DNA of 64,000 nt from an uncultured Acidobacteriota bacterium. Its GTDB lineage: Bacteria; Acidobacteriota; Thermoanaerobaculia; UBA5066; Gp7-AA6. Positions 39,474 to 57,411 of this stretch are shown one piece after another; positions within the stretch are counted from its first letter, which is position 1, and the number at the start of each line of letters is the position of its first letter. Below the pieces are notes generated by a model. The model was not told the DNA's origin. It saw nothing but the letters and a program-made list of their open reading frames with translations, and searched no databases. The stretch is from contig CAVTEG010000015.1 of the NCBI GenBank assembly GCA_963733815.1, positions 464,313 through 528,312 of the forward strand. The letters run 5' to 3'. The translations under genes were made by a program, and so were the position numbers.

Positions 39474-39489
39474 GATGGCCTCCTCGTCA
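39355..39489. repeat. junction repeat A (5' end of ADOP-2 + spacer + stop of ADOP-3), about 93% identical to 41700-41843
   Basis: Hand alignment of aagatggccgcgttggcgccgatgcc...cattcggacggcgtagcggatgtcctgcgagagtgtggtcacgatggcctcctcgtcattcg with the 41.7 kb copy gives about 9 substitutions and 1 indel over about 135 nt. Confidence 0.7.
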
Positions 39490-41818
39490 TTCGGTGCGTA
39501 GGGCTGGATCGGATCGTTCGCGCGCGCGCGCGCGGGTGAGGCTCGCGGCGACGGCGACGGCCAGGATGAGCGCGATGCCGCGGACAGGGCCAGCGGATCC
39601 TGCGGCCGGACTCGGAAGAGCTGGCTCTCGAGGAGCGGGCCGAGCAGAAGCGAGCGAAGACTCCCAGCGCGATGCGGCGGCCGTCAGGGAGAGCGCGCGG
39701 GCTGAGATGAGCCCGCGCGATCGTGAATCGGTCGGCGCCGAGCGCGATGCGGATTCGATCTCCCGCGTCGGTCGCCGACGAGCGCCGAGACGACGCCGAA
39801 GATCCGATCGCGGTCAAAACGGTCGCCAGGGCCGCGAAGACCGAGAGAAGGCCGGCGAGGAAGCGGCGGCCGGCGGCGGACGCCGCGATAATCGGGGCAT
39901 CGTCGCGACTTTCATGACGGGCTGGTTCGGATCGACCGAGGCGATCGCGGCCCGCGTGGCGGAGGCGAGCGACGCGGATCGGCGGCCCGCACGACGAGCA
40001 CATTCCCGCGTCCACCACTGGGCGCGGGGCAGGTAGATCTGAGGCGTGGGAGGGCGTCGAGGCCGTCGTGTCGAACGTGCCGGCGACGCCGACGACGGTG
40101 CGCAGGGGCCGTCGTTTCCCCGACGCGCACGCGCTTGCCGATCGGGTCTCATCGGCGCAGATCGTCGCGCGAGAGTCTCGTTGACGAGGACGACGGGCGC
40201 GCCTCCGGTCGTCGGCGGCCGTGAACGCGGCCCTCCGCACGGGAATTCCATCGTGGCCATGTAGTCGGGGCTGACGGCGTAGCGGTCGGCGTAGGGTCGC
40301 TCCGGATTGACGTTCGGCCGGTCTCGGCATGGACGCGTAGCGTCGCGGTTTCCTCCAGCGGCAGCTGGCTGACGAGCCGGCGCGTGACGCCGGCAGCGCG
40401 CGACGCGCTCGAGGACGCGATCGTAGAAGGCGCGCACGCCTCGTCTTCTCGTAGGCGTCGCCGAAACGTCGATCTCTATCGTCAGCAGGCCTTCGGCGCG
40501 AAACCGGATCGACGTTCAGAAGACGCGCGGTGCTCGGACCAGCAGCATCGCGCGCAGAGCAGCATGAGGGCGAGGCCGACATCGAACACGACGAGGGCGC
40601 CGAAACTCGCCGCGATTGGCGACCTCGCGGTTACCCCCGACGCCCGCGCAGGACGGGTTCGGGATCGAGGCGCGCGAGCGCAGGGCCGGGACGATTCGAA
40701 CAGCAGGCCGTCAGGAGGGAGGCGCGAGCGTGTAGACGAGGACGCCTCGTCGAGCTGCACGGACGCGATTCGCGGCAGGTTGCGGCGGCGAGCAGAGTGG
40801 CTGGAGCAGTCAGGCTCGCGCGAGAAGCCAGGGAGCCTCCGGCGAGTGCGATGACGAGGGCCTCGACGAGACAGAGCGGGCGATGCGCGCGCGCGAGGCG
40901 CGAGGGCCGTCGGACGGCGATCTCTTGCGCGGCGCGTGGCGCGGGAGAGCAGGAGGCTTCGACGTTGGCGCAGCGATGAGAAGGACGAGGCTGACGCGCG
41001 AGCAGCGTGCAGGGCGGCCGCGTGGCGGTGAGCGCTTGGGAACGAAGTACGAGGGAGCAGCGGGCGCGCGTAGGAAGAGGGATGCTCGGACGAGCCTCTG
41101 CGAGAGGGCGTTATGTGGCGCGCGCTGCGCGAGCGAGACGCGGGCCTAGGGCGACGAACGCGAAGGTGGGCAATCGCGGCAGGCCTGGGGGAGGGTGTGT
41201 TGTAGCAGAGCGGCGCGAAGATCTCGGCGGGTGCGCGAGATGAAGAGAACACGGACTCGAAGTGGGAGGGCGAGACGCGGGCACGAGGTAGGACGTGTCG
41301 AGGCGGATCGTTTTCACGGCAGCGAGGGGTCGGCGCGAATCGGCAGCGCAGAGCTGTCGATAGGAGGACGAGTACGAACCGATTGTCGCGGAGAGCCTCC
41401 GACGCAAGGAAGTTCGCCGAGAGCCGGGCGCGCTTGAGAAGGCGGAAGAACCTGTCGCTGACGCGGATCTCTTCGATCCGCTCAGCGGGGACTCCGGCCT
41501 CCGCCGAGAGCTTGGGCGCTCAGTACGAGACGACGGCGATATCCTCGAAGGAGCGGTTTATCTCCCGCTAGTCGACGTAGGTCGCATAGCCGGTGTTGTC
41601 CGGGTTCTGGTTCTGATCGCGCTTTCTTGAGCGTTTTCACTAGGGCTCTGAGGCTGTTGGAATGGGAGAGGCCGCAGTTAGGATTTCGCGGACGACCGAG
41701 AAGATGGCCGTGTTGGCGCCGATGCCCAGGCGAGCGTGGCGACGGCGATGGCGGCGAAACCGGGACTGCGCACCAGCATTCGGACGGCGTAGCGGATGTC
41801 CTGCGAGAGAGTGGTCAC
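39487..41818 (-). pseudogene. ADOP-family permease, copy 3, decayed (nonsense codons and many frameshifts)
   Basis: GTG 41818 starts [29 protein letters not shown]. In-frame TAG (41568-41570) sits where paralogs have Trp (YVD*REINRSFEDIAVVSY*), and TGA lies at 41520-41522. Middle and C-terminal pieces (LVLLIA.ANV, EIAVR, FGALVVFDVGLALMLL, SPDYMATMEF, VVLVNETLARR, PQIYLPRAQ, RRFLAGLLSVFAALATVLTAIG, IRIALGA) are spread over three frames. The C-term DPIQ(A)LRTE-TGA at 39487 needs one inserted base. Confidence 0.75.
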
Positions 41819-41843
41819 GACGGCCTCCTGGTCATCCCGGTCA
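41700..41843. repeat. junction repeat B (5' end of ADOP-3 + spacer + stop of ADOP-4), with a 9-nt tandem duplication
   Basis: This is the counterpart of 39355-39489. The spacer carries ggtcatccc/ggtcattcg (41830-41847), a near-duplicate absent from copy A. Confidence 0.7.
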
Positions 41844-44347
41844 TTCGCTGCGTAACGCTTCCAAGGGATCCAGCCGCGCCGCTCGCCGGGCGGGCGGATA
41901 CGCCGCGAGCAGTGCCACGACGACCATCAAGAGGACTCCGGCCGCGAAGACGGCGACGTCCGCGGCCTTGACGCCGAACAGGATGGACTCCACGACGCGC
42001 GCCAGCACGTAGGCGGCGGGCAGCCCGATCAGGCCGCCGACCGCGAGAAACCGGACGACCTCGCCCAGCACGAGGCGCCGCACGGTCTGCGGATCCGCGC
42101 CCAGAGCGATCCGGACTCCGATCTCGCGCCGCCTCTGCTCGACTGCGAAGGAGAGCACGCCGTAGATCCCGATCGCGGCGAGCAGCGCCGCCAGCGCTCC
42201 GAACGCCGCCGAGAGGAAGAGCATCAACCGATCCGTGAGAAGCGATTCGGAGAGCTGCGCCGTCATGGTCTTGAGGCTGTCGATCGGAAGCTCGGGGTCC
42301 AGGCGCTTGACCTCGGCGCGCAGGGCCGGCGCCAGATTTCCAGGATCGCGGTCGGTCCGCAGGTAGAACGTCAGCTCGCCGAGCTTTTCGAACTGGAGGT
42401 ACGGCAGGTACGCGAAGGGAACGTCCGGCTCGGAGACCTGGGAGTTCTTGATCGAGCGGACGATGCCGACGATCTCGATGTCGGGATGGACGTCGGCCCC
42501 TCCGCCCAGCCCGAACCGGGCGCCCAGGGCGTTGCGTCCCGGGAAGAGCTTCCGAGCCATCGTGTCGTTGATGACGGCGACCTTGGCGCCGAGGCGTCGT
42601 CCTTCCAGGAAATGTCCCGGCCGGCCAGAATTGGGACGCCGAGGGTCGCGAAGTAGTCCGGACCCACGCGGTTGCGGCGGACGCGGCCGGAATCGAAATC
42701 GTGCGGCGCGCCTTCGATCGTCACATTGCCGCCGTTGTCGCTGTTGGTGAAGCTGCCGAGCTGAGCCGCCGTGACCGACCGGACGCCGGGCAGCGTCTTC
42801 AGGTTCTCCGTCAGGCGGCGGGCGAGGTCCGCAGTGCGCTCGGCCGAGTAGCCGTTCAACTTCGGCGCGATCGTGAAGCCGATTACGTTCTCGGGCCGCA
42901 CGCCCAGATCGACGCGCGCCAGGTTCGCCAGGCTTCGGGCGAACAGTCCCGCCGCGACGAGCAGGACTAGCGTCAGCGCGACCTGCGCCGTGACCAGCCA
43001 GGCTCGAAACCGGAGGGCCTCGCGCCCCGGGGACACCGTACCGCGGCCCTGACCCGCGAGCGTGCGCGCCGGATCCAGCCGGGCCGCCCTGTATGCCGGC
43101 CCCACGCCGAAGAGGATTCCTGCGGCAAGCGATAGAAGACCCGCGAAGAAGACGACGCGTGGATCGATCTGGGCAGCGATCAGCCGCATGTCCGCGTCGG
43201 CCGGGAACGCCGAGAGCAGTCCATGCAGGATCCAGGCGGCGACGACGACTCCGAGGACACCACCGGCGATCGTGAAGAGGAGGCACTCCACCACGGACTG
43301 TTGCAGCAAGTGGCGGCGCGTGGCGCCGATCGCCAGCCGGATCCCGTACTCGCGCTGGCGTGCCGCTCCCCGGGCCGCGAGCAGGCCCGCCAGGTTCGAG
43401 CACGCGATCAAAAGAACGAGACCGACCATCCCCATCAGGGACACGAGCGGCTTGCCGATGCCGTCCTGGAGGACGCGGCGGCCGTGCGAACCCGGGACGA
43501 GCAGGATCCGCCGCGCCAGGAACTCTTTCTTCGTGTTCTCGTTCCAGCCCTCGATCCTCGGCAGGAGCTCCTCGAGAAGCGGCCGGTAGGTCGGCACGAG
43601 GGCTCGCTCCGCTTCCGAGCGCGAGCGGCCCGGCTTGAGCCTGCCGACGATCTGAATCCAGTAGTCCTTGGGGTCTTCGAGGCCGTTCCAGAACGGCGTC
43701 ATCTGCGGCTTCATCATCATCGGCACGAAGAGGTCCGCGGGGCGCCCGGCCTGGATCCCGGCAAACGACGGCGGCGTCACCCCGACGATCGTGAAGGGAT
43801 GACCGTTCAAGACGATCGTCTGGTCGAGAATCGAGCGGTCCGAGCCGAAGTGGCGCGCCCAGTAGCCGTGGGACAGCACCGCAACGGGATGCGCGCCGGG
43901 CGTTCGGTCGTCTTCGGGGCCGAGGACGCGTCCCAGGGACGGCGGAACCCCGAGCACGCCGAAGTAGTTGCCCGTGACGAGCTCGCCCCGAGCCAGCTCC
44001 GTCGAGCCGCGCGCAGCCACACTCGCGTCGAACGGCTGCTCGCCCACCAATCCGGCGAACACAGTCGCGCGGTCCCTCAGGTCCCGGTACATCGGATACG
44101 AGAAGCACGCCGTGTCGTCTCCGTCGCTCGACGTGTGGCCCTGCCGAGGCCCGGGGGAGCGCAGCAGGACCAGCTCTTCGGGATTGCGGACCGGCAGCTC
44201 GCGGATCAGGACGCGGTCCACCAGGGCGAAGATCGCGGCGTTGGCCCCGATGCCGAGCGCGAGCGTGGCGATCGCCGCGGCCGCGAAGGCCGGGCTGCGC
44301 CGCAGAGTCCGGAACGCGTAGCGCAGGTCCTGAAGCAGAGGGCTCAT
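41841..44347 (-). pseudogene. ADOP-family permease, copy 4, single 1-nt frameshift near 42586-42590
   Basis: The N-terminal 585 or so codons lie in ORF 42371..44347 ([43 protein letters not shown] ... GVPILAGRDISWKDDASAP). The continuation KVAVINDTMARKLFPG... to RLDPLEALRSE lies in ORF 41841..44108. Confidence 0.8.
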
Positions 44348-44360
44348 CGCGGATCCTTTC

Positions 44361-46796
44361 TCATTCGCTGCGGAGCGCGGTCATGGGATCCACCTTCGCG
44401 GCGCGGCGCGCGGGCACATAGGACGCCAGCGCCGCCGCTCCGGCGAGGACGGCGACGACCGCCGTAAACGTCGCCGGGTCCCGCGGTCCGACTCCGTGCA
44501 GCGTGGAGGCGAGGACGCGCGAGGCCGCCATGGCCGCGACAATGCCCGCGGAGAGGCCGAGGACGATCGGGATGAAGCTCTGCCGGACCGTCAGCCGCAC
44601 GATGTCGCGGGCCGTAGCACCCAGGGCCATGCGCACGCCGAACTCGGGAGTGCGCTGGGCGACGAAGTAGGAGATCACGCCATAGATTCCGACCCAGGCC
44701 AGCAGCAGACCGATCGCTCCGAGCGCCGAGAGAAGCATCGTGTTGAACCGATCCTCCGCGAGCGAGCTGCTCCGGCGCTCGTCCATCGACGTGACGTCGT
44801 AGAGCGGAACCCCGGGCGCCGCCTCGCGGGCCGCCGACCGGATCGCCCCGGCCAGCGCGGCGGTGTCGCCTCCCGCCGACCGGACCGCGATCGCCATCGT
44901 GCGCTGGACCCAGTCCCAGGCTTCGGCGGGAGACTGGGCGAGCGGAAGGTAGAACTCCGGATAAAGCTCGACGCCGAGGCCGCGCGAGCGGACGTCTCCG
45001 GCGATCCCGATCACGGTCTTCCACATGGGATCGGCTTCGGATCCCTCGCAGCACGCCACGCGCTTGCCGATGGGATCCTGTCCGGGCCAGAGCCGGCGGG
45101 CGAGCTCCTGGCTGACGATCATGACCCGCGGAGCGCCGCGCACGTCCCTGGCACCGAAGCCGCGCCCGCGCACCAGCGGGATCCGCATGACTTTCAAATA
45201 GTCCGGCGTGATCATGCGGAGTCGCGCGTCCACGGCCTTCGAAACGTCGATCGTGGCGGCTTCGGCGATCAGGCCGTTCGAGTTGCCGCCGGGTCCGAGC
45301 GGAAGCTGTGAGGTCACCGCGGCAGCCTGCACGCCCGGGGATCGCTCGAGCGCGGCGACCATCCGCTCCCACGTCCGGTTGACGGTTTCGTCGTCGGCGT
45401 ACGCGCGAGCCGGCAGCGACATCCGCGCCGTCAGCACGCCGCGGGGCTCGAAGCCCGGCGCCACGCGCTGCAGGTGGATCGCCGTACGGATCAGAAGGCC
45501 CGCACCGACGAGGAGCAAGAGGGCCAGGGCGATCTGCCCGGCGACGAGCGCCATGCGGAGACGGTCGTGGCCGCCGGAGAGGCCCGGCGTACGGCCGCCT
45601 TCCCGGAGCGCGGCCTGGAGATCGCGCCGCGTGGCGCGGACGAGCGGCATCATGCCGAAGACGAGACTGCTGACGAGCGAGATCCCGACCGCGAAGAGCA
45701 GGGCGGCGGCGTCCAGGTTTGCCTGCTCGATTCGGGGAACTCCCGGCGGGCTCGCGGCGATGAGCGTTCCCACGGCGCCGACCGCGAGGACGACACCCAG
45801 GGCTCCGCCGGAGAGACCCAGGACGACGCTCTCGGTGAAGAGCTGCCGCGCGATGCGGCCCCGCGAAGCGCCGAGCGCCGCCCGCGTCGACAGCTCGCGG
45901 GCCCGGCCCGCGCCCCGCGCCAGCAGCATGTTCGAGACGTTGCTGCACGCGATCAGCAGGACCAGCCCGACCGCGCCGAAGAGGATCCAGAGACGCTCCC
46001 GGTAGTTCTCGACCAGGAGGTCCTTGAAAGGCTGGATCCGGAAGCCACGCTCGGCGTTGTGCAGGGGGAAGCGGCGTTCGAGATCGCGCGAAATGGTCAG
46101 GGCGTCCTGGTTGGCTTCAGCGACCGAGACGCCGGGTTTGAGGAGCCCGTAGATCGTGAGGCTGTGCTTGTCATGGTTGGCGAGCGTCTCGGAATCGAAC
46201 GCCGCCGGAACCCACAGCTCCTCGTTGTCGCGCGTGTAGTCGAAGGAGGCCGGCATCACGCCGACGACGGTGTAGGGCTCTCCGTCGAGGCGCAGGGTGC
46301 GGCCCACCACGTCGGTCGCGCCTCCGAGCCGCGACTTCCACATGCGGTCGCTGACGACGACGACGTGGCCGGCTCCGGGCCGATCTTCCTCGGGCCGGAA
46401 GCCCCGACCCCGCTGCGGCCTCACTCCGAAAACGTCGAAGTAGTCCTCCGTCACTCGCGCTCCGTCCACCCTCTCCGGCGTGACGCTCTCGGCGAGGTTG
46501 AACGTCGCGTAGCGGACCGCGGCAAGCTTGTCGAAGCTGCGGCTCGCGGCCTTCAGGTCCGCGAAGTTGCCGGCGGAGACACCCCCACGTCGGCCCCTCC
46601 ACGTCTCCATTACCGCGACCACACGGTCCGCATGGGCAAACGGCAGCGGGTTCAGCAGGACCGCGTGCACGAGGCTGAAGATCGCCGTGTTGGCGCCGAT
46701 GCCCACGGCGAGCGTCACGACCGCGAGAGCGGCGAACCCGGGGCTGCGGGACAGCGTCCGGATCGCGTACCGAAAGTCCTGCAGGATCGTGCTCAT
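44361..46796 (-). CDS. ADOP-family permease, copy 5 (intact)
   Basis: ORF 44361..46796: [43 protein letters not shown] ... LLIACSNVSNMLLARGAGRARELSTRAALGA ... [23 protein letters not shown] ... [10 protein letters not shown]. Confidence 0.9.
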   Translation of the reverse strand: MSTILQDFRYAIRTLSRSPGFAALAVVTLAVGIGANTAIFSLVHAVLLNPLPFAHADRVVAVMETWRGRRGGVSAGNFADLKAASRSFDKLAAVRYATFNLAESVTPERVDGARVTEDYFDVFGVRPQRGRGFRPEEDRPGAGHVVVVSDRMWKSRLGGATDVVGRTLRLDGEPYTVVGVMPASFDYTRDNEELWVPAAFDSETLANHDKHSLTIYGLLKPGVSVAEANQDALTISRDLERRFPLHNAERGFRIQPFKDLLVENYRERLWILFGAVGLVLLIACSNVSNMLLARGAGRARELSTRAALGASRGRIARQLFTESVVLGLSGGALGVVLAVGAVGTLIAASPPGVPRIEQANLDAAALLFAVGISLVSSLVFGMMPLVRATRRDLQAALREGGRTPGLSGGHDRLRMALVAGQIALALLLLVGAGLLIRTAIHLQRVAPGFEPRGVLTARMSLPARAYADDETVNRTWERMVAALERSPGVQAAAVTSQLPLGPGGNSNGLIAEAATIDVSKAVDARLRMITPDYLKVMRIPLVRGRGFGARDVRGAPRVMIVSQELARRLWPGQDPIGKRVACCEGSEADPMWKTVIGIAGDVRSRGLGVELYPEFYLPLAQSPAEAWDWVQRTMAIAVRSAGGDTAALAGAIRSAAREAAPGVPLYDVTSMDERRSSSLAEDRFNTMLLSALGAIGLLLAWVGIYGVISYFVAQRTPEFGVRMALGATARDIVRLTVRQSFIPIVLGLSAGIVAAMAASRVLASTLHGVGPRDPATFTAVVAVLAGAAALASYVPARRAAKVDPMTALRSE

Positions 46797-46810: not shown

Positions 46811-49276
46811 TTATTCGCTTCTCAGCGCGCGGATCGGGTCCACCTTCGCCGCCCGGCGCGCGGGCGCGGCGCTCGCGGCCAGGACGGCGGCTCCGAGGAT
46901 CGCCGCAGCCACGAGGTAGGACAGGGGATCCAGCGGTGTGACGCCGTACAGGAACTCCGAGGCCAGACGCGAAGCGCCGGCGGCCGCGGCGAGTCCGGCC
47001 GCGAGCCCGAACGCCGCGAGGCGCGCTCCACGGGAAAGAACGAGGCGGCGGACGCTGGAAGCCTGCGCTCCGAGCGCCAGCCGGATGCCGAACTCCCGTG
47101 TGCGAGCCTGGGTCGCGTACGACACGACGCCGTAGAGTCCCGTCGCCGACAGGAGGAGCCCGAAGCCGGCGAACGCGCCGACCAGCAGAGCGATGAGCCG
47201 CCCCTGACCCATGGACGCGCCGATCTTTTCGTTCAGCGTCCGCACGTGAAAGAGAGGCAGGCTCGGATCCAGCTCCGCGACCGCCCGCGACAGCGGGCGC
47301 TGGAGTGCCGCCGGATCTCCGCCGGTCGTCAGGAGGAGAGTCATGCGCGGCATGTAGAACTGGGACAGGGGAACGTAGACTGTCGGATCCGCCTCGCGCC
47401 GAAGGCTGCGTGCCCGGACGTCGCGAACCACGCCGATCACCTCGCCGCCGACGCCCGGAGGGCCGAGGTTCTTGATGCGCCGGCCGACGGCATTGACGCC
47501 CGGCCAGAACTTGCGGGCCATCGACTCGCTGACGATCGCCACCGCGGGGCCATCCGCGCGGTCCCCGGCGTCGAAGTCGCGACCGGCGACGAGCGATGCG
47601 CCGAGTGCGTGAAAGTATCCCGGCGTGACGATGTTCAAGTCCGCGGCGGGAGTTTCCCCGGGCGCCGGTGTGTACCCGTCGCTCTCGATCGTCGTCCGCA
47701 TGCCGGAGCTCTGGACGGGGACCATGCGGGCCAGGGCCGCGGCGCGCACGCCCGGAATCGCGGCGGCGCGATCGAGGAGCTGTGAGAGGAAGGCCAGGCC
47801 GCGCGCGCGGTCGTAGCCCTGACGTGCGAGATCCATCGAGGCCTCGAGCTTTCCGGACGGATCGAACCCCGGATTCACGGCCGATTCGCGCGCGAGGGTG
47901 CGCGCCGTCAGTCCGGCCCCCACGAGGAGCACGACCGACAGGGCGATCTGGCCGGCCACGAGAAGGTCGCCGACGGCCAGGCGCGCGATCCGGCGGGAGC
48001 CGCCTTTGATCGAGCTCAGCACGTCCACGCGCGGCCCGCGCAGCGCCGGAACGATCCCGGAGAAGAGTGCCGCCAGACCGGCGGCGCCGATCGCGAAGCC
48101 GAGCGCACGAGCATCGAGCACGGACGTGGCGGCGCCTATGGGCAGGGCGAACTCGTCGGGCACGGCCAGAGCGAGCAGCTGCGCCGCCCAGACGGCGAAC
48201 AGAAGTCCCGCTCCGGCGCCGAGGATTGCGAGGAGCAGGCTCTCGACGAAGAGCTGGCGGCCGATCTGCCGGCGCGACGCGCCCAGCGCCAGACGCACGC
48301 CGATCTCACGGCGCCGCCGCTCGGCGCGCAGCAGCAGGAGTCCCGCGGCGTCGGCGCACGCGATCAGAAGCACGAGCCCGGCCATTCCCACGAGCAGCCA
48401 CGACAGCCGCCGCGCATCGTCCTGGTAAGCCGGCCCGACCGCGAAGTCGGAAGCCGGCAGGACCCGGGGCATCGGGTCGTGGCGCTTCGCGTCCGCGGGC
48501 TCCGATGCGGCCCGGCGGCGAGCGATCGCGTCGAGCTCCGCCTGTGCAGAAACGCGGGAGGCCCCGGGCTTCAACCTCGCGACGATGTCGAGCCATGCGA
48601 GGTTTCGATGCGTCAGGATCTGGTCTTCGACGAATTCGGGAAGAGCCTGGTCGACCATGGCGGCCGGGACCCAGACGTCGGGCAGACTGTCGAGATCGAC
48701 GCCGGTGAACCCGCGCGGCGCCACACCCACGATCGTGAAGGGATGCCCGTTGATCGAGACCGTGGACCCGACGACGGCCTCCTCGGCTCCGAAGCGCCGC
48801 CGCCAGAGCCGATCGCTCACGACCGCGACCGGGTGGGTCCCCGGGACGCGGTCGTCGGAGGCCGAGAGCAGTCGGCCACGCTGGGGCCGCGCGCCGAGGA
48901 GGTCGAAGAAGTTCCCGGAAACGACGGCGCCCGTGACGCGCTCGGCCTTTCCGCCGCCGGCCGCGAGGTGGAAGGCTTCGGCGTCGTCGAAGCCGGCCAT
49001 CCCCTCGAACGACGTGGCCCCGTCGCGATAGTCGGTGAAGACGGGGTAGGAAGAGTTCCAGAGGTCCGAGGCTTTTTCGTCGGTGGCGTAGATGCGCACG
49101 AGGGAGCCGGGATCCCGCACCGCGAGGGAACGGAACAACACCGCGTCGACCGCCGAGAAGATCGCCACGTTGACGCCGATGCCGAGGCCGAGCGTCAGTA
49201 CGGCGAGGGCGGCGAAGCCGGGGTTTCGGGCGAACGTCCGTGCCGCGTATCGGAGGTCCCGGATCCAGGAACTCAT
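46811..49276 (-). CDS. ADOP-family permease, copy 6 (intact), start overlaps the ATPase stop
   Basis: ORF 46811..49276: [43 protein letters not shown] ... YGVVSYATQARTREFGIRLALGA ... VDPIRALRSE. ATGA overlap at 49273-49276. Confidence 0.9.
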   Translation of the reverse strand: MSSWIRDLRYAARTFARNPGFAALAVLTLGLGIGVNVAIFSAVDAVLFRSLAVRDPGSLVRIYATDEKASDLWNSSYPVFTDYRDGATSFEGMAGFDDAEAFHLAAGGGKAERVTGAVVSGNFFDLLGARPQRGRLLSASDDRVPGTHPVAVVSDRLWRRRFGAEEAVVGSTVSINGHPFTIVGVAPRGFTGVDLDSLPDVWVPAAMVDQALPEFVEDQILTHRNLAWLDIVARLKPGASRVSAQAELDAIARRRAASEPADAKRHDPMPRVLPASDFAVGPAYQDDARRLSWLLVGMAGLVLLIACADAAGLLLLRAERRRREIGVRLALGASRRQIGRQLFVESLLLAILGAGAGLLFAVWAAQLLALAVPDEFALPIGAATSVLDARALGFAIGAAGLAALFSGIVPALRGPRVDVLSSIKGGSRRIARLAVGDLLVAGQIALSVVLLVGAGLTARTLARESAVNPGFDPSGKLEASMDLARQGYDRARGLAFLSQLLDRAAAIPGVRAAALARMVPVQSSGMRTTIESDGYTPAPGETPAADLNIVTPGYFHALGASLVAGRDFDAGDRADGPAVAIVSESMARKFWPGVNAVGRRIKNLGPPGVGGEVIGVVRDVRARSLRREADPTVYVPLSQFYMPRMTLLLTTGGDPAALQRPLSRAVAELDPSLPLFHVRTLNEKIGASMGQGRLIALLVGAFAGFGLLLSATGLYGVVSYATQARTREFGIRLALGAQASSVRRLVLSRGARLAAFGLAAGLAAAAGASRLASEFLYGVTPLDPLSYLVAAAILGAAVLAASAAPARRAAKVDPIRALRSE

Positions 49277-49959
49277 CGCGCGGCCACGCTGGGGGCTTCG
49301 CCCTCGATCCAGCCGTCACGCAGGCGCACGATCCGATTTCCGTAGGTGGCGTTCTCTTCCGAGTGCGTGACCTGAATGATCGTCGTGCCTTCGTCGTTGA
49401 GCCTCTTGAAGAGGCGCATGATCTCGCGCCCCTGATCCGAGTGGAGGTTTCCGGTCGGCTCGTCGGCGAGAAGCAGCGCCGGTTTCGCGATGAGCGCGCG
49501 CGCCACGCCCACGAGCTGCTGCTGCCCGCCCGAGAGCTGGTTGGGGAAGAGGTCCTTCTTGCCGACGATCTGAAAGCGGTCGAGCGTGTCGGCCACGATC
49601 GCCGCGCGCTCGGAGCCTTTGACGTTGCGGTACGAGAGCGGGATGTCCAGGTTCTCGGCGACGGTGAGGTTGTCGAGCAGGTGGTACTGCTGGAACACGA
49701 ACCCGATGTGTTTCTTGTTGAGCTCGATGCGATCCTTCGGCTTCATGCGCTGGACATCGTTGTCGAGGAGGCGGTACTCCCCGCGCCAGTCGTGGTCGAG
49801 CATGCCGAGGATCGCGAGCAGCGTGGACTTGCCGGCGCCCGACGGGCCCATGATCGTGACGAACTCTCCCTTCGCGATCGACAGGTCGATGCGGCGCAGG
49901 ACGAACGTTTCGCCGGCGCGTGTCTGGAAGGATTTCTCGAGGTTGGAGAGTTGGATCAT
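49273..49959 (-). CDS. ABC transporter ATP-binding protein (MacB/LolD-type NBD)
   Basis: ORF 49273..49959 (228 aa). Walker [11 protein letters not shown]-loop FQQ, signature LSGGQQQ, Walker [10 protein letters not shown]-loop VTHS. Confidence 0.92.
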
Positions 49960-49966: not shown

Positions 49967-52417
49967 TCAATCCCCTTTCAGTGCCTGTGCGGGCGGAATG
50001 CGGGCGGCGCGCCGCGCGGGGAGACCGCTCGCGAGGAGCATGACGACCACGAGGCTCGCGGCCGCGGCGCCGAGAGCGGCCGGGTCCGCGGGAGCCACGC
50101 CGAAGAGCAGCCCGCGCAGAAGGCGTGAGACGGCGAGCGCCGCGGCCAGGCCCAGAGCGATCCCCGCGAAGGCCAGGCGTGCCGTCTCGCCGAGCACGCT
50201 CCCGACCACGCGCGAGGGACTTGCGCCCAGGGCGACGCGGATGCCGAGCTCGCGCGTGCGCATCGCGACGACGTAGGACAGCAAGCCGTAGACGCCGACC
50301 ATCGCGAGGCCCAGGGCGGCGCCTCCGAAGGCGACCATCAGGCGCGTGTTCAGGCGCGCGGGAGCGAGCGCTTCATCGTAGACGGCCGGAAGGCTCGTGA
50401 CGTCGGCCATCGGCAACTCCGGGTCGAGACGCCGCAGGGTTTCGCGCAGCGCCGAGAGGATCGTGGCCGAATCTTCGTGGCCGCGCACGATCAGCCGCAC
50501 GTCTTCGAGAGGAAACTGCCGGGCCGGCAGGTAGTAAGCCGGCTCGGGGTCCTTGTCGAGCCCGAGAAAACGGACGTCGCGGACGACGCCCACGATCTCG
50601 TAGCGCGTCGGCAGCCCCTTTCCCCACCACATTACGGCGTCCGATGTCTCGAGCTGGTGTCCGATCGCGGTGCGTCCCGCGAAGTGCCGCCGCTCGAACG
50701 CCTCGTTGACCAGGGCCACGGCGGGATGGGCGGCGTCGTCCGTCGAAGCGAGATCGCGTCCGCGCGCCAGCGGCACGCCAATGGCGCGGAAGTATCCGTC
50801 GCTGACCGACCGGAACCACGAGGGCGCCTCACCCTCGCCGGCGGCCGCCGTTTTCCCCACCACGGACGCTCCGCCGATCCAGTTGGCCTCGAGCGGATGG
50901 TTGTAGGCCAGCCCCGCTTCCGCCACGGCGGGCAGCGATCGGACCTGCGCCAGCAGAGCGTCTTGGAACTGCGCGACGCTCTCCCACGTTGCGTAGCGGC
51001 GTCGGGGCAGCGTGACCCGGCACATCACGACGCTTCGAGCGCGGAATCCGGGGTCCACGCTGCGAAGCTGCAAAAGGCTGCGCGTCAACAGCGCGGCGCC
51101 GAAGGCGAGCACGACCGCGAGCCCCGTCTCGGCGAGCACGAGCGCCTTGAGCCCCCGCTGAGCGGCGTGCGAGCCGGTCGTCGTGCGGCCGGCGGTCGGA
51201 AACGCCCCCGCAGCGCCCCGCCGGGAGAAGATCAGCGCCGGCGTGAGGCCCGAGACGACTCCCGCGCAGACCGAGACGATCAAGGCGAAGGCGAGGATCC
51301 CGCGGTGTACGGTGAGCTCGGAAAGCCGCGGCACCTCGGGCGGCACGAGGCGGACGAGGAAAGGCAACGCCCAGTACGCGAGAACGGTGCCGAGAACTCC
51401 GGCGCCGACCGAGAGCACGAGGCTCTCGACCAGCAGCTGCGCGGCGATGCGTCCCCGGCCGGCGCCGAGTGCCGCCCGAACCGCGATTTCGTGGCTCCGA
51501 GACTCGGCGCGGGCGAGCTGGAGACTCGCGACATTCGCGCATCCGATCGTCAGCACGAGCACGACCGCCGCGAAGAGAACCCACAACGCCGGCCGCGTCG
51601 CTCCCGCGGTCTCGATCGAGAGGGGGCGCAGCCGGGCGTCGGCCGCGCGGCTGGTCGAATCCTCGGCCCGAAGTCGGCGGGCGAAGGCCGTCATTTCCTG
51701 CTGCGCCGAGGTCTCCGAGACTCCGGCGCGCAGCCGGCCGATCACGCCGAGCACGTAGCTTCGGCCTCCGGGCGCTCCGGTTCCCTCCATGGCGACGGGG
51801 ACGAAAAACTGGGGTTCGGGCTCGAACGCGATCCGCCCCTGGGTCATCGGCATCGCCGGATACGGCGCTGTCGGCCACACGGCGACGACGGTGTAGGGCT
51901 GGCCGTCGAACGTCAGCGTGCGGCCGAGGATCGATGGATCGGCGCCGAAGCGCCCGGCCCAGAAGTCCCGTGAGAGCGCGACCATGCGCGGAGCGCCGGC
52001 GCGGCCGTCGTCCGGTGCGAAGTCCCGGCCGGCGATCGGCGACACGCCCAGGACCCTCAGGTAGTTCGGCGAAACGCGTGCACCGCGAAGGGTCTCGGGT
52101 TCGCCGGAGCCCGTCAGCGTCACGCTCGCGCCGCCGAACGCGGCGATGTCCTCGAAGCTTCGGCTCTCTCCGCGCCACGCGCGGTACGTCGCCGGTGAGA
52201 CGCGCCAGAGCTTGCCGTCGTCCATGCGTTCCCAGAGCACCTGTAGGCGCGCTGGCTCGCGATAGGGAAGAGGTGCGAGGACGACGGCGTGCAGGACGGA
52301 GAAGATCACGGTGGCCGCCGCGATGCCGAGGGCCAGCGTCGTCACCGCGGCGGCCGTGAAACCGGGGCTGCGGGCCAGGGAGCGCAGGGCGTAACGGACG
52401 GCGGAAAAACCCTTCAT
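49967..52417 (-). CDS. ADOP-family permease, copy 7 (intact, divergent termini)
   Basis: ORF 49967..52417: [42 protein letters not shown] ... TIGCANVASLQLARAESRSHEIAVRAALGA ... YGLLSYVVAMRTRELGIRVALGA. The C-term IPPAQALKGD replaces the usual ..ALRSE. Confidence 0.9.
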   Translation of the reverse strand: MKGFSAVRYALRSLARSPGFTAAAVTTLALGIAAATVIFSVLHAVVLAPLPYREPARLQVLWERMDDGKLWRVSPATYRAWRGESRSFEDIAAFGGASVTLTGSGEPETLRGARVSPNYLRVLGVSPIAGRDFAPDDGRAGAPRMVALSRDFWAGRFGADPSILGRTLTFDGQPYTVVAVWPTAPYPAMPMTQGRIAFEPEPQFFVPVAMEGTGAPGGRSYVLGVIGRLRAGVSETSAQQEMTAFARRLRAEDSTSRAADARLRPLSIETAGATRPALWVLFAAVVLVLTIGCANVASLQLARAESRSHEIAVRAALGAGRGRIAAQLLVESLVLSVGAGVLGTVLAYWALPFLVRLVPPEVPRLSELTVHRGILAFALIVSVCAGVVSGLTPALIFSRRGAAGAFPTAGRTTTGSHAAQRGLKALVLAETGLAVVLAFGAALLTRSLLQLRSVDPGFRARSVVMCRVTLPRRRYATWESVAQFQDALLAQVRSLPAVAEAGLAYNHPLEANWIGGASVVGKTAAAGEGEAPSWFRSVSDGYFRAIGVPLARGRDLASTDDAAHPAVALVNEAFERRHFAGRTAIGHQLETSDAVMWWGKGLPTRYEIVGVVRDVRFLGLDKDPEPAYYLPARQFPLEDVRLIVRGHEDSATILSALRETLRRLDPELPMADVTSLPAVYDEALAPARLNTRLMVAFGGAALGLAMVGVYGLLSYVVAMRTRELGIRVALGASPSRVVGSVLGETARLAFAGIALGLAAALAVSRLLRGLLFGVAPADPAALGAAAASLVVVMLLASGLPARRAARIPPAQALKGD

Positions 52418-52421: not shown

Positions 52422-54848
52422 TCATTCCGACCGGAGAACGGTGGCGGGATCGACGGCCATGGCTCGCCGCGCCGGTCGCGCGCACGCGAGGGCCACGACG
52501 CCGGTGACGACGAAAGCGACGCCGCCGAAGGTGAGCGGATCCGTCGGGCCGACGCCGAAGAGGAGGCTCGACAGGAAGCGCGTCAGGCCCACGGCGGCGA
52601 CGGCGCCGATCACGATTCCGATGGCGGCGAGCCTGAGCGAGTGGTGGAAGACGAGGCGGAGGACGTCCCCGCGTTTGGCGCCGAGCGCCGTCCGGATGCC
52701 GATCTCGCGCGTCCGCTGCGCCACACCGTAAGAGACGACGCCGTATATGCCGACCGCGGCGAGGAGGAGCGCCAGGGCGCCGAACGCGCCGAGGAGAAGC
52801 GTGTGAAAGCGCCTGCGAGCCAGCGACTCGGCGATGTACTGGGTCATCGGCTGCACGGCGGTCACGGCCTGGTCCTTGTCGAGCGCGTGGATCGCCCCGA
52901 TCACCGGCTTCGCCATGCTCATCGGCGACCGGCCCGTCCGGACGAGCAGCGTCAGGGCGGGCTCGGGATCCTGGGCCATCGGCAGGAAGACCTCGGTTCG
53001 GATTTCGGCGTCGAGTCCGGACTGGGGAACGTCGCCGACCACGCCGACGATCTCGCGGAACGGGGCGTCGTTCTGGGGAAATCCCTGCTTGATCCGCTTG
53101 CCGAGGGGACTTTCGTTCGGCCACCACTTGCGGGCCATCTTCTCGTTGATCACGACGACCGGGGGCGAGGTGGGCGTGTCGGTCGCGTCGAAGAAACGAC
53201 CTTTCTTGAGCGGCACGCGCATCGTCTGAAAGTAGGACGACTCGACCATGTTGAAGGGGCTGGTCGGCAGCTCCGACTGCCTCGGAACGGGCCGATCCGA
53301 GACGAGGTAAACGGAGCCCCAGCACTGGCCGACGACCGGCGTGCACATGCTGGCGCTGGCGCTCTCGACGCCCGGGAGGTGGCGGATCTCCTCGAGACCC
53401 CTCTCGTAGAAGCGACGCTGCTCCTCGTCGGTCTTGTACGTTGCCTCCGGAAGGTAGACGTCGAGCGCGAGGACGCCGTCAGTCTCCAGACCGGGAGACA
53501 CACCCTCGACCCGGCGGAGGCTGCGGAGCAAAAGTCCCGAGGCCACGGCCAGAACGAACGCGAGGGCGACCTCCGAGACGAACAGCGCGGAACGGAGGCG
53601 CTGGCGCGCGGTTCCCCCCGTCGCGGTGTTGCCGGACTCGCGAAGAGTCGTCTGGGGATCGCTTCGAGATGCCTGTGCAGCGGGAGCGAGGCCGAAGATG
53701 AGGCCGGTCAAAGTCGACGCGGCGAGGGTGAATAGGAGCACGGCCGTATCGATCCTCGTGTCCGCGAGGCGCGGGATCTCGGGAGGCGCCAGACGCAGCA
53801 GCGGCCCGAGCGCCCAGGCCGCGAGCACGACACCGAGAGCGCCCCCGATCGCGGAAAGCAACAGGCTTTCGGTCAGGAGCTGCCGAACGATCCGGGCCCG
53901 ACCGGCGCCGATGGCCGTGCGGATCGCGAACTCCCGGCGCCGCGCCGACGCCCGGGCCAGCAGCAAGTGCGCGATGTTGGCGCAGGCAATCAGAAGCACC
54001 ACGCCCACGGCCGCGAGCAGGATCCAGAGGGCCGCCCGGAAGTCTCGGAACATGGCATCGTCCAGGAAAGCGATCGTGGCCCGCTGGCCGCTGTTGGACT
54101 GGGGATACTCCTTCTCGAGCTGGAGCATGATGGTTTCCATCTCGCGCCCCGCTCCCTCAAGGGACGCTGCGGGCGCGAGCCTCGCAAGCACGCGCATCGC
54201 CGAGTGGTTGCCCCGATCCAGCCAACCCCGCCGGCTGCCCATCAGGCCAACCGGGGTGTAGATGTCGACGGCGTCCGCGAAGAACGCGAACGAACGCGGG
54301 AGCACGCCCACGATCGTGTGGGGAGTTGCGTCGAGTTGGACGGCGCGGCCCACGACCGAAGGGTCGCCGCCGAAGCGCCGCTTCCACACTCCGTGAGACA
54401 GCAGCGCGACGGGCGAAGCCCCCGGTCGGTCGTCGGCTTCGTCGAACGCACGACCCAGCGCGGGGGAGACCCCGAGGAGCGGAAAGAACGGAGCGGACAC
54501 CTGTGCGGATCGAAGCATCTCCGGCGCGCCGGCGCCGCTGAGCATCAGGTGATCGGTCCGGAAGCCGGCCATGCCCTGGAAGGACCGCGCTTGCGTCCGC
54601 CAGTCCAGGAACGTCGGCCATGCCACGCCCATCTCGCCGCCGTGGTGGATATGCCGCTCGCGCATCACGACAAGCCGGTCGGGCTCGGGGTACGGGAGGC
54701 GGCGAAGAAGGACGGCGTGCACGACCGAGAAGATCGCGGTGTTGGCTCCGATGCCCAGCGCCAGGGTCGCCACGGCGATTGCGGTAAAGCCGGGCGTGCG
54801 CACCAGGGTGCGAAGGGCGTAGCGAAGATCCTGCATCAGTGTGGACAT
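52422..54848 (-). CDS. ADOP-family permease, copy 8 (intact)
   Basis: ORF 52422..54848: [43 protein letters not shown] ... LLIACANIAHLLLARASARRREFAIRTAIGA ... YGVVSYGVAQRTREIGIRTALGA ... VDPATVLRSE. Confidence 0.9.
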   Translation of the reverse strand: MSTLMQDLRYALRTLVRTPGFTAIAVATLALGIGANTAIFSVVHAVLLRRLPYPEPDRLVVMRERHIHHGGEMGVAWPTFLDWRTQARSFQGMAGFRTDHLMLSGAGAPEMLRSAQVSAPFFPLLGVSPALGRAFDEADDRPGASPVALLSHGVWKRRFGGDPSVVGRAVQLDATPHTIVGVLPRSFAFFADAVDIYTPVGLMGSRRGWLDRGNHSAMRVLARLAPAASLEGAGREMETIMLQLEKEYPQSNSGQRATIAFLDDAMFRDFRAALWILLAAVGVVLLIACANIAHLLLARASARRREFAIRTAIGAGRARIVRQLLTESLLLSAIGGALGVVLAAWALGPLLRLAPPEIPRLADTRIDTAVLLFTLAASTLTGLIFGLAPAAQASRSDPQTTLRESGNTATGGTARQRLRSALFVSEVALAFVLAVASGLLLRSLRRVEGVSPGLETDGVLALDVYLPEATYKTDEEQRRFYERGLEEIRHLPGVESASASMCTPVVGQCWGSVYLVSDRPVPRQSELPTSPFNMVESSYFQTMRVPLKKGRFFDATDTPTSPPVVVINEKMARKWWPNESPLGKRIKQGFPQNDAPFREIVGVVGDVPQSGLDAEIRTEVFLPMAQDPEPALTLLVRTGRSPMSMAKPVIGAIHALDKDQAVTAVQPMTQYIAESLARRRFHTLLLGAFGALALLLAAVGIYGVVSYGVAQRTREIGIRTALGAKRGDVLRLVFHHSLRLAAIGIVIGAVAAVGLTRFLSSLLFGVGPTDPLTFGGVAFVVTGVVALACARPARRAMAVDPATVLRSE

Positions 54849-54852: not shown

Positions 54853-57411
54853 TTACTCCGTTCTCAGAGCCGTGATGGGATCGACTCGGGCTGCCCGTCG
54901 GGCGGGCAGGAAAGCCGCCACGGCGGCGACGGCCACCATGACCGTCGCGACGACGGCGAGCGTCGCGGGATCGGAACTGCCGACTCCGTAGATGAGGTTC
55001 CCCAGAAGGCGGCCCGCGGCGAGGGACGCCGCGAGACCGATGACCAGCCCGGCCACGGTCGGCCGCAGGCCCTGGAGAACGATCATCCGGACGACCTGCG
55101 GCCGGCGGGCCCCGAGCGCCATTCGGATTCCGATCTCGTTCGTGCGCTGCGCGACCGAATAGCCGAGCACGCCGGACAGCCCGACGGCCGCGAGACAGAG
55201 GACGACCGCGCCGAAGAACGTCAGCAGCTGCGCGTAGAGACGCTCGCGGGAAAGGTTGGCCTCCGAGCGCGCCTCCTGCGTGCCGACCTCGGTGACCGGC
55301 AGATTCGGGTCGATCTCGCGCACGACGCGCCGCATCGTCTCCGCCATTGCCGCGGGGTCGCTCGCGGTGCGCAGGGCGAAGCGCATCTCGCCGATCGAAT
55401 CAGTCTGCTGCCGCCAGGGCGTGAAGAGCAGAGGCTCGATCGCCTTGCGCTGGCTGTCGTACTTGGTGTCGCCGACGACGCCGACGATCTCCAGCTCGGG
55501 GTCTTCTTCGGAGTCCCGTACACGCTGGCCCAGCGGACTCCGGCCCGGGAAGTACTTTTCGGCGAAGGCCTGGTTGACGATCGCGACCCGAGGAGCCCGC
55601 GCGTCGTCCTTCTCGGAGAAGCCGCGGCCGAGAATGCGGGGGATCTCCAGCGCTTCGAAGAAGTTCTCGCGGACCGTCTGCAGATTGGAGTAGTGACGGG
55701 CGGCCGTCGCCGCCGTCTCGCCGGGAAGAAGAACAGACGTGTCCCACGTGTAGTCGGCAATCAGGGGAATGTGGCTGAACGTCGCCGCGCGCACTCCGGG
55801 CAGGGCGTCGAGCCGCGCGAAGAGTCGGCCGTAGAAGTCGAGAAGACGCTCGTCTTTGTACCCCGCCTGGCGAGGCTGCAGCGTGAAGACGAGGAGCTTC
55901 TCCTGGTTGAACCCGAGACGGACGCCCTCGAGGTTGGAGAGCGTTTGCAGGAACAGGCCTGCCCCCGCCAGGATCACGACCGAGAGGGCCACCTGGAGGG
56001 CGACCAGCGTGTTTCTGAGGCGGGAGCCCGTCGTCGTTGTGCGGCGGCCCTGTCTCAGGGTCGTCGCCAGGTCGAGAGACGCCGTCCGCCACGCCGGCGC
56101 CAGTCCGAAGAGGATTCCCGTCGCGAGGGAGATCGCCAGCGTGAACGCCAGGACCCGCGCGTCGAGCCCGCGATCGATGTCGAGCATGAACCGGCTGTCG
56201 CCGTCGGCCAGGCCGACGAGCGCGGTCCTTCCCCAGACCCCGAAGAGCGTCCCCGCCGCGCCGCCCAGGACCGCCAGGAGCACGGACTCGGTCAACAGCT
56301 GCCGGACGAGCCGCCTGCGACCCGCGCCGAGGGCAAGCCGTGCGCCGATCTCGGGGCGGCGCAGGGCCGCGCGGGAGAGGAGAAGGTTCGCGAGGTTTGC
56401 GCACGCGATCAGGAGCACGGCCGCAACGACGAGAAAGAGGCTGTAGATCGGCCGCGAGAAGGACCGCCGGTGCTCCCGCAGTCCCCGTCCGCCGGGCTCC
56501 GCGACCAGACGCGGATAGTCCTTCGGTTCCAGACGCGCCGGCTCCCCGTCGCGCCGCGGAGGCGGCATGATCTCCAGCGCCTGGGCCTGGAACGTCCCGT
56601 TCAGGCTCCGGGCCGCCTGCTCGCGCGTGGCGCCAGGCTTCAGGCGGCCCATGAGGTTGATCCACCAGATCCCGGGCTTGCCGTCGCGGGCCATGCCCGT
56701 GTCCTCGCCCAGCAGCGTCGGCTCGAAGTGGAGGGGGACCGTGACGTCCGGCTGATAGTCCACCTGCAGCGCGCCGTGGAACCCCGGCGCCGTCACGCCG
56801 ATGACCGTGAAGGTTGTCTGGTTGAGCTTGAGCGGCTGACCGAGGATGTCTGGATTCCCTCCCAGGCGCTGCTTCCAGTAGGCGTGACTGAGAACCACGA
56901 CGGGCGTCGCCTCCGCCGCGTCGTCCTGGGCCACGATTCCTCGGCCGACGAGGAAGGGCACACCGAGTCCGGCGTAGTAGCCGCCCGATACGACCTCACC
57001 GTGCACGATCTCGGCGTTTCCTCCTGCGGCGGCGGTAATGTCGTAGAGCGGCGCGAACGCGAAGAGGTCGGAGAGCGGGCTGTTCCCCGCCTGCTGTCGC
57101 CACGACTCGCGCAACCTCTCGATGGTGTCGTAGCGGAAGATCGAGCTTCCCTGGGTTCCCTCGGGATGCGGGGAGCCGGACCCACGGCGTCCACTCGTCC
57201 GGAACGCCCTCCCGGCTTCCCACTCGAGCAGCACGAGGCGGGCGGGATCTCTCACCGGCATCGTCTTCAGCAGGACCGCGTCCACGACGCTGAAGAGGGC
57301 GGTGTTGGCGCCGATGCCGAGCGCCAGCGTCAGAACCGCGATCGTGGTGAACCCGGGATTCTTCCGGAGCCATCGGGCGGCGAAGCGCAGGTCCTGGAAC
57401 AGCGTCGACAC
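54853..57411 (-). CDS. ADOP-family permease, copy 9 (intact)
   Basis: Frame of ORF 54853..57459. The likely start is GTG 57411 ([42 protein letters not shown]), 4 nt after the ADOP-10 stop. C-term VDPITALRTE. Confidence 0.88.
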   Translation of the reverse strand: MSTLFQDLRFAARWLRKNPGFTTIAVLTLALGIGANTALFSVVDAVLLKTMPVRDPARLVLLEWEAGRAFRTSGRRGSGSPHPEGTQGSSIFRYDTIERLRESWRQQAGNSPLSDLFAFAPLYDITAAAGGNAEIVHGEVVSGGYYAGLGVPFLVGRGIVAQDDAAEATPVVVLSHAYWKQRLGGNPDILGQPLKLNQTTFTVIGVTAPGFHGALQVDYQPDVTVPLHFEPTLLGEDTGMARDGKPGIWWINLMGRLKPGATREQAARSLNGTFQAQALEIMPPPRRDGEPARLEPKDYPRLVAEPGGRGLREHRRSFSRPIYSLFLVVAAVLLIACANLANLLLSRAALRRPEIGARLALGAGRRRLVRQLLTESVLLAVLGGAAGTLFGVWGRTALVGLADGDSRFMLDIDRGLDARVLAFTLAISLATGILFGLAPAWRTASLDLATTLRQGRRTTTTGSRLRNTLVALQVALSVVILAGAGLFLQTLSNLEGVRLGFNQEKLLVFTLQPRQAGYKDERLLDFYGRLFARLDALPGVRAATFSHIPLIADYTWDTSVLLPGETAATAARHYSNLQTVRENFFEALEIPRILGRGFSEKDDARAPRVAIVNQAFAEKYFPGRSPLGQRVRDSEEDPELEIVGVVGDTKYDSQRKAIEPLLFTPWRQQTDSIGEMRFALRTASDPAAMAETMRRVVREIDPNLPVTEVGTQEARSEANLSRERLYAQLLTFFGAVVLCLAAVGLSGVLGYSVAQRTNEIGIRMALGARRPQVVRMIVLQGLRPTVAGLVIGLAASLAAGRLLGNLIYGVGSSDPATLAVVATVMVAVAAVAAFLPARRAARVDPITALRTE

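Follow-up and report, generated by a model that had tools for sequence, protein, structure and literature searches.

Which ATPase energizes the permeases of the ADOP family, known as orphan permeases, is the question raised by a stretch of 64,000 nucleotides (hereafter the window) from an uncultured bacterium of the phylum Acidobacteriota. The window corresponds to positions 464,313 to 528,312 of contig CAVTEG010000015.1 (C15) of the GenBank assembly GCA_963733815.1 (G000), that is, to G000:C15:464313-528312. The assembly comprises 4.3 Mb in 15 contigs, is ~85% complete and has a GC content of 70%. Within the window, a long array of ADOP genes is interrupted by NBD1, a gene encoding a stand-alone nucleotide-binding domain (NBD) of the ATP-binding cassette (ABC) superfamily. 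From the letters of the window alone, it had been proposed that NBD1 is the only nucleotide-binding protein of this array and could be shared by eleven permeases.

We consider it probable, with moderate confidence, that NBD1 represents an ATPase type belonging to a conserved ADOP pump cassette, and that NBD1, a second ATPase of the same operon (NBD2) and a single adaptor constitute a small pool common to all ADOPs. This reading is based on gene structure, synteny, co-occurrence, clade-invariant residues and the absence of position-specific ADOP clades.

NBD1, an intact ATPase of the MacB class

The reading frame of NBD1 at 49273-49959 on the minus strand is intact, starts with ATG and encodes 228 amino acids (aa), and its assignment as a MacB-type NBD is borne out by Pfam and PDB matches. 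It matches the Pfam family ABC_tran (PF00005) with 110 bits, for a cut-off of 25, and the Walker A, Q-loop, signature, Walker B and H-loop motifs are all present. The best 20 PDB matches are all MacB-class proteins, among them 5XU1, MacB (5LJ9/5NIK), MJ0796, BceA, YtrE, LolD, YbbA and FtsE. Together with neighbouring permeases of the FtsX/MacB_PCD type, these nearest structures place NBD1 in the MacB class (type VII) of ABC transporters. NBD1 is nevertheless none of the named equivalogs DarD, MacB, LolD and FtsE, since all four NCBIfam scores lie below the equivalog cut-offs (DarD, 256 for 375; MacB, 199 for 966; FtsE, 192 for 265; LolD, 177 for 308).

The junctions of NBD1 with the adjoining permease genes are as originally described. 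ADOP-7 ends with a TGA at 49969-49967, which leaves a gap of 7 nt before the NBD1 start at 49959, and a purine-rich, Shine-Dalgarno-like stretch (AAGGGGA) lies within the final ADOP-7 codons. On the other side, the NBD1 stop codon (TGA, 49275-49273) and the ADOP-6 start codon (ATG, 49276-49274) overlap as ATGA. The neighbouring genes are genuine members of the family: nine intact copies tested match the model TIGR03434 with 833-1001 bits (cut-off 622.3), and Pfam recognizes two MacB_PCD and FtsX units in each.

A conserved cassette with two ATPases

The array does not end with the window. It runs 3.1 kb beyond base 64000, to C15:531431, where it is headed by NBD2, itself preceded by a gene for an HlyD-family (MacA-like) adaptor. 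NBD1 is therefore not the only nucleotide-binding protein of the operon, which reads adaptor - NBD2 - seven ADOPs - NBD1 - five ADOPs - a 151-aa open reading frame (ORF) - sigma54 regulator - kinase, all on the minus strand. A whole-genome search also raises the number of permeases from the eleven first counted to 12, namely ten intact genes, ADOP-4 with a single frame change and the decayed ADOP-3. A search of the genome for further MacB-type NBDs had been suggested in the original prediction, for which other NBD genes able to pair with the other permease copies would be damaging; NBD2 is such a gene.

A degenerate-pattern search yielded 584 confirmed NBD1-related loci, the best 80 of which were analysed. 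These come from Thermoanaerobaculia, Terriglobia, other Acidobacteriota and many Gemmatimonadota, with a few metagenome-assembled genomes (MAGs) labelled Myxococcales, Deltaproteobacteria or Limnocylindrales. There being no curated model, we define the NBD1-type clade by at least ~65% identity, the motifs LSGGQQQ-L and TGNL-H-S, and a place in the cassette behind adaptor, NBD2 and ADOPs and ahead of the sigma54 regulator and kinase; NBD1 itself is 68-92% identical to its counterparts in the 80 loci, has both invariant residues and shares their synteny. When reference proteins were mapped onto these loci, a recurring order emerged, consisting of adaptor - NBD2 - 0 to at least 4 ADOPs - NBD1 - 0 to at least 5 ADOPs - sigma54 regulator - kinase. 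NBD2 and NBD1 are direct neighbours in ~25 loci, and in most loci the gene for the sigma54 regulator comes immediately after NBD1, with no ADOP between them; the translational coupling to ADOP-6 therefore does not point to a special partnership. An intact cassette with five ADOPs between NBD2 and NBD1 and seven between NBD1 and the regulator and kinase is present in a genome of the same family (G024). At the other extreme, the locus L010 of a member of the Terriglobia encodes, according to Pfam, a TolC-like OEP protein, an insertion sequence (IS), HlyD, two successive ABC_tran proteins, a response regulator with Sigma54_activat and a kinase; the flanking 10 kb to either side are free of permease genes. 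The NBD2-type proteins of the related loci are 65-82% identical to NBD2 of L010.

Genomes that lack NBD1 reveal a simpler arrangement. All ten loci fetched from such genomes contain adaptor - NBD2 - ADOP, and in eight of them the regulator and kinase lie alongside, mostly as adaptor - NBD2 - one or two ADOPs - regulator - kinase. Because NBD1-less loci have this composition, the basal unit appears to be an ordinary MacAB-like pump with an ADOP as permease and NBD2 as motor, to which NBD1 was added with the expansion of the family. ADOPs are thus not truly orphan, since in genomes with one or two ADOPs the gene stands directly behind adaptor and NBD2. In the original description of the family (TIGRFAMs), orphan presumably meant that no ABC ATPase is fused or adjacent. 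The 12 ADOPs of the array do not fit this description, with NBD1 inside the array and NBD2 at its head, and at least six dispersed copies of the same genome do. The kinase of the cassette, as judged from intact orthologues, has two transmembrane (TM) helices separated by a linker of ~9 residues; it is predicted to be of the intramembrane type, for which binding of a periplasmic ligand by the kinase itself would not be possible.

Occurrence in Acidobacteriota genomes

The distribution of the three protein types was recorded in 151 Acidobacteriota genomes, with thresholds of E <= 1e-85 for NBD1, E <= 1e-150 for ADOP, and E <= 1e-100 with at least 67% identity for NBD2-type proteins. The counts are descriptive, since related genomes cannot be treated as independent. 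NBD1 was found in 39 genomes, as a single copy in 38 of them, ADOPs are present in 60 genomes, and ~56 of these 60 also encode an NBD2-type protein. The presence of NBD1 follows the size of the ADOP family: it was found in 36 of the 39 genomes with at least five scored ADOP hits, in one of the 21 with one to four hits and in two of the 91 with none. NBD2 occurs without NBD1 in ~20 genomes. In five genomes where NBD2 does not adjoin NBD1, it is encoded elsewhere (5/5).

In five genomes, no ADOP gene lies within 10 kb of NBD1. Four of them carry a permease-less cassette of adaptor, NBD2 and NBD1, and in the fifth NBD1 is accompanied only by regulator and kinase; the ADOP genes at other sites of these genomes number 27, 37, 41, at least 52 and at least 53. 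Such distant ADOPs in genomes with permease-free NBD1 loci are the strongest argument for shared ATPases.

ADOP copies and choice of partner

Beyond the array, the genome contains 8-9 further ADOP genes. Six of these dispersed copies (C9:100331, C9:64186, C9:1055443, C6:53919, C15:361520 and C15:363960, in G000) are each preceded by a gene for a PadR-family regulator and possess a conserved N-terminal extension of ~80-100 aa that is absent from the array copies; none of the six is adjoined by an ATPase gene. PadR-type ADOP loci track the expansion of the family about as well as NBD1 does, and NBD1 is also found in expanded genomes without this PadR type. The correlation was considered as a clue to an ADOP class arriving with NBD1 and was rejected, as it does not discriminate. 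A further copy, ADOP-1 (window 25590-28020, plus strand), lies outside the array on the opposite strand, and its family match is split into four pieces in different frames.

A tree was built of 125 ADOPs from this array, seven dispersed copies, G024, 21 other loci and ten basal cassettes. Copies from upstream and downstream of NBD1 are intermixed in it, 43 label changes being needed, and no position-specific clades were found among the 125 sequences. For several well-supported pairs of orthologues, one member is found upstream of NBD1 and the other, in a different genome, downstream of it. Since orthologues swap sides, the location of an ADOP gene defines no partnership, and the same applies to the ATGA coupling of ADOP-6. 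The proposal of one NBD common to many permeases therefore holds in part: few ATPase genes probably serve many ADOPs, to judge from the single-copy state of NBD1, the 27 to more than 50 distant ADOPs and the exchange of sides, but the ATPases are two and not one.

The ten intact ADOPs of the array are 35-45% identical to each other and are thus old paralogues. Across all ADOPs, conservation is uneven along the protein, with 44-59% identity in the best-kept segments (the N-terminal helix with TM1, the C-terminal tail, and the cytoplasmic loops that follow TM2 and TM6) versus 32-33% in the two periplasmic domains. The loops after TM2 and TM6 hold the coupling-helix motif R-x-R-E-[FI]-[AG]-I-R-x-A-[IL]-G-A. 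This pattern fits a common cytoplasmic docking surface combined with diversified substrate-facing parts. Half-specific coupling-helix motifs were also sought as a sign of two different ATPases and proved uninformative, since both ADOP halves carry the generic FtsX motif.

Comparison of NBD1 and NBD2

The two ATPases of the operon are 42% identical. In an alignment of 81 NBD1 and 42 NBD2 sequences, both types retain the Walker A Lys, the Q-loop Gln, LSGGQ, the Walker B Asp-Glu and the H-loop His. Two substitutions are invariant in the 81 NBD1 proteins, Leu for Arg after LSGGQQQ and His for the D-loop Asp (TGNLHS), whereas the 42 NBD2 proteins are canonical at both positions. Both substitutions fall at the dimer interface, in elements (signature-adjacent and D-loop) that an ABC ATPase supplies to the ATP site of its partner. 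The pair does not have the hallmarks of a degenerate heterodimer: the catalytic Glu and the H-loop His are kept in both proteins, and NBD2 occurs without NBD1.

Gene adjacency, and the rule that genomes with NBD1 also have NBD2, suggest a heterodimer. An obligate heterodimer is weakened by the basal cassettes, which run on NBD2 without NBD1, and by the lack of a fixed change in NBD2 discussed below. On balance, separate homodimers of NBD1 and NBD2 have a little less than an even chance of being the working form, and a heterodimer of the two is a possibility that we hold more tentatively.

Proposed mechanism

The cassette consists of a TolC-like duct (in some loci), a MacA-like adaptor, NBD2, any number of ADOPs, NBD1, again any number of ADOPs, a sigma54 response regulator and a loop-less histidine kinase. 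Each ADOP would form a pseudo-dimer similar to MacB, in which two periplasmic domains are combined with two conserved coupling loops on the cytoplasmic side, and would require two ATPase protomers. NBD2 may be the ancestral ADOP motor and NBD1 a second motor subunit that arose in lineages with multiplied ADOPs. The pool of ATPases and adaptor could then be recruited by any ADOP, in this genome by the 12 members of the array as well as by the 8-9 dispersed copies (at least six of them PadR-linked), and the variable periplasmic domains would confer different substrate specificities on one engine. Physical sharing, the composition of the working dimer, the substrates and regulation by the kinase are features that we infer.

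A more specific version of this model is conceivable, although we regard it as doubtful. NBD1 and NBD2 would form a dedicated asymmetric heterodimer in which the His and Leu of NBD1 face the ATP site of the NBD2 Walker A; this motor would exist as a free pool with one adaptor and one outer-membrane duct, would dock to each of the interchangeable ADOPs, 20 to more than 50 in number, and its load would be read by the loop-less kinase and the sigma54 activator.

Counter-evidence and alternative explanations

Several points weigh against a common pool of ATPases. The interaction of the ATPases with the ADOPs is itself deduced from genomic evidence, and co-occurrence across related genomes is not independent evidence. 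When NBD2 sequences from NBD1-containing genomes were compared with those from genomes that lack NBD1, no fixed difference emerged, so that a heterodimer need not be postulated. The genome encodes about ten other MacB-type ATPases, all but one of which stand beside their own single FtsX permease. Finally, the genes for kinase and regulator (33731-36539) and for NBD2 and adaptor (C15:531442-533460) contain at least ten frame changes in ~4.9 kb (~2 per kb), and if these are real the engine is broken in this organism and only NBD1 survives.

The one ATPase without a permease of its own, at C7:67080-67802 (plus strand), is a canonical MacB-type protein encoded behind TolC-like fragments (C7:64616-67802), with no permease downstream. 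It was considered as an alternative ADOP motor and rejected, since proteins of its type occur in 138 of the 151 genomes irrespective of ADOPs. It resembles a housekeeping system, the permease having been missed or lying at another locus.

The frame changes invite the explanation that the cassette has decayed here, adaptor, NBD2, regulator and kinase being real pseudogenes and the intact ADOPs being served by an NBD1 homodimer alone, free of any adaptor. Their density exceeds both that of the array ADOPs (one in ~27 kb) and that of 59 ordinary conserved genes compared with their G024 orthologues (~12 in 72 kb, or ~1 per 6 kb), and one gene of the operon has truly decayed: the stop codons of ADOP-3 are substitutional, and it is a genuine pseudogene. 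By gene, there are at least two changes in the adaptor, at least five plus an internal stop in the regulator and at least three in the kinase, and NBD2 has three indels, among them two that compensate each other and alter a run of 12 residues behind Walker A. Many of the changes are single-base insertions. However, several form close compensating pairs. The ~12 changes in ordinary conserved genes mean that the assembly is error-prone in general, as expected for a long-read MAG, and close relatives possess intact copies of the cassette. Moreover, the amino-acid divergence of NBD2 from its G024 orthologue is not in excess (-0.009, where ~+0.09 would be expected if the three indels came with the usual substitution load), which argues for consensus errors over old decay. 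Decay of the cassette is, in our judgement, improbable.

Two other explanations accept the cassette as functional and assign NBD1 a narrower role. The operon might comprise two dedicated modules, in which NBD2 serves the seven ADOPs between NBD2 and NBD1, and NBD1 serves the downstream block or ADOP-6 only. The division of the array into 7 + 5 by NBD1 and the ATGA overlap that couples translation of NBD1 to that of ADOP-6 would be accounted for in this way, but orthologous ADOPs lie on either side of NBD1 in different genomes without forming position-specific clades, the regulator follows NBD1 directly in most loci, and some cassettes are free of ADOPs while the genome has dozens; we find dedicated modules unlikely. 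Alternatively, NBD1 could be mainly a signalling partner that, together with an ADOP, reports transport to the loop-less kinase as BceAB does to BceS. The position of NBD1, which in most loci immediately precedes the genes for sigma54 regulator and kinase, the ~9 residues that join the TM helices of the kinase and the presence of BceA among the nearest solved relatives of NBD1 are in keeping with such a role. Against it, the regulator-kinase pair is also part of NBD1-less cassettes, so that sensing is independent of NBD1, and NBD1 retains every catalytic residue; little weight is given here to a mainly signalling function. A small pool of ATPases and adaptor common to all ADOPs is thus the explanation that we retain.

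Organization and transcription of the locus

Coordinates of the operon are collected in Table 1. Genes within the array are separated by 4-14 nt or overlap and, because no gap exceeds 14 nt, the array is most likely a single transcript. No sigma70-like promoter was seen at 44001-64000, and terminator-like sites are not in excess there.

Judging from promoter-like motifs, the transcript probably starts at a sigma54-type promoter before the adaptor. A relaxed scan found sigma54-like TGGCACG-N4-yyyGCy elements in 11 loci, that of this genome among them; they lie just upstream of the adaptor or where its gene is expected to start, and a reverse-strand control gave no matches. The element of this genome, TGGCACGCTTCTCGCC, lies at C15:~533484-533499 on the minus strand, ~5.2 kb past the window end and at the expected adaptor start, and a near-identical one, TGGCACGCCTCTCGCC, is present in the related locus L007. 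A strict consensus scan gave nine matches, three of them before the adaptor, and a regular expression applied to the 350 nt upstream of the adaptor gave a sigma54-like site in 6 of 34 cases; of these scans, only the relaxed one with its reverse-strand control is informative. The dispersed ADOPs have no sigma54-like site close upstream.

Table 1. Genes of the ADOP operon in G000, from the head of the operon downwards; positions are those of the window unless prefixed by C15
Feature	Position	Strand	Remarks
NBD2	C15:531442-~532200	-	second MacB-type ATPase; 10 nt upstream of ADOP-13
ADOP-13	C15:529005-531431		beyond window end
ADOP-12	62211..64000	-	cut by window end; full gene C15:526526-528934
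ADOP-11	59815..62214	-	ADOP match is residues 596-1392 of long open frame 59815-63993
ADOP-10	57416..59806	-	
ADOP-9	54853..57459	-	start codon uncertain; hidden Markov model (HMM) match from ORF residue 20
ADOP-8	52422..54848	-	TIGR03434, 1001 bits
ADOP-7	49967..52417	-	final gene of the seven-ADOP block between NBD2 and NBD1
NBD1	49273..49959	-	228-aa MacB-class (type VII) ABC ATPase; LSGGQQQ-L, Walker B LLLADE, D-loop TGNL-H-S, H-loop VTHS
ADOP-6	46811..49276	-	first ADOP downstream of NBD1
ADOP-5	44361..46796	-	
ADOP-4	41841..44347	-	one frame change giving two overlapping frames (HMM positions 1-560 and 558-803)
ADOP-3	39487..41818	-	decayed; family match in short fragments only; in-frame TGA, TAG and TAA stops
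ADOP-2	37011..39473	-	final array gene; 970 bits
Unassigned 151-aa ORF	36530-36985	-	between ADOP-2 and regulator
Sigma54 enhancer-binding response regulator	35170..36539	-	at least three frames and an internal stop in the assembly
Cassette histidine kinase	33731..34986	-	several frames in the assembly

The 151-aa ORF at 36530-36985 (minus strand), earlier labelled msrB, has no Pfam match. Further along the minus strand, a long ORF (33003-34421) carries DUF6597 and another (32354-33187) carries DUF6265; annotation of the stretch from the array to 32354 needs to be redone in a frame-aware manner. Family models of rpoB and rpoC have no match in the assembly, which is consistent with its completeness of 85%, and gene absences should not be over-read.

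Comparison with known systems

The system is taken to work in the manner of MacAB-TolC and YbbAP. With MacAB-TolC (type VII ABC; PDB 5NIK, 5LIL, 5LJ9) the cassette shares a MacB-class ATPase domain (NBD1 scores 171 bits to the MacB NBD), a MacB_PCD and FtsX permease, an HlyD-family adaptor in the operon and, in the operons of relatives, a TolC-like duct. In contrast to MacAB-TolC, ATPase and permease are here separate proteins, the permease has an internal duplication that makes it a pseudo-dimer, and the operon comprises two ATPase paralogues and 12 permease genes under sigma54 two-component control.

A stand-alone ATPase combined with a duplicated FtsX permease is also found in YbbAP-TesA of E. 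coli (PDB 9GE6-9GE8), and YbbA and NBD1 match with 142 bits. Two copies of the separate ATPase YbbA bind the pseudo-symmetric, duplicated permease YbbP via two coupling helices (PMC12646458), and YbbA2:YbbP1 is thus a structural precedent for a separate ATPase pair on a duplicated ADOP permease. YbbAP differs in having a single ATPase gene and a single permease, in lacking an adaptor and in its partner, a periplasmic hydrolase, and YbbP has 10 TM helices whereas ADOPs have 4+4 hydrophobic segments and two large periplasmic domains.

The darobactin exporter DarBCD (NF038007, NF038008) includes DarD, the best NCBIfam match of NBD1 (256 bits), and DarB, which functions together with an adaptor and is likewise a long FtsX permease with a duplication. 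Nevertheless, NBD1 stays below the DarD cut-off (375), ADOPs match DarB only at E ~1e-4, and there are no peptide biosynthesis genes near this locus. BceAB-BceRS of Firmicutes (PDB 7TCG, 8G4C) similarly combines a type VII-class ATPase with a kinase that has almost no extracellular loop, but lacks the sigma54 enhancer-binding regulator, the adaptor, the many permeases and the two ATPases found here.

One motor gene for many membrane components encoded elsewhere is a principle realized by MsiK/MsmK of sugar importers and by the group II energy-coupling factor (ECF) transporters, which, unlike the present system, are importers of other ABC classes. To our knowledge, there is no example of a shared-ATPase system in the type VII class.

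A cluster of ten ADOP paralogues, beside transporter genes with ATP-binding regions and highly abundant as protein, has been reported in Psychroflexus torquis; it was described as a cluster only, and no partner ATPase, cassette or mechanism was proposed (PMC3914696). A literature search found no published account of ADOP partner ATPases.

Significance for the ADOP family

For the window itself, the outcome is mostly corrective: the ATPase that seemed to stand alone is one half of a pump cassette of familiar appearance, the head of which falls outside the window. The wider interest lies in the family. In the dominant soil phyla Acidobacteriota and Gemmatimonadota, ADOPs make up very large sets of paralogues, with 27 to more than 50 copies in genomes checked, and they are still annotated as having no energy source. 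A conserved, single-copy pair of ATPases, one adaptor and a sigma54 two-component system accompany the family and scale with its expansion, which provides a testable model of one engine with many exchangeable permeases. Should the motor pool of NBD1:NBD2 heterodimers prove true, it would be the first case of type VII ABC transporters in which many permeases share a motor, and would provide a model of how one of the largest families of uncharacterised transporters in soil bacteria works.

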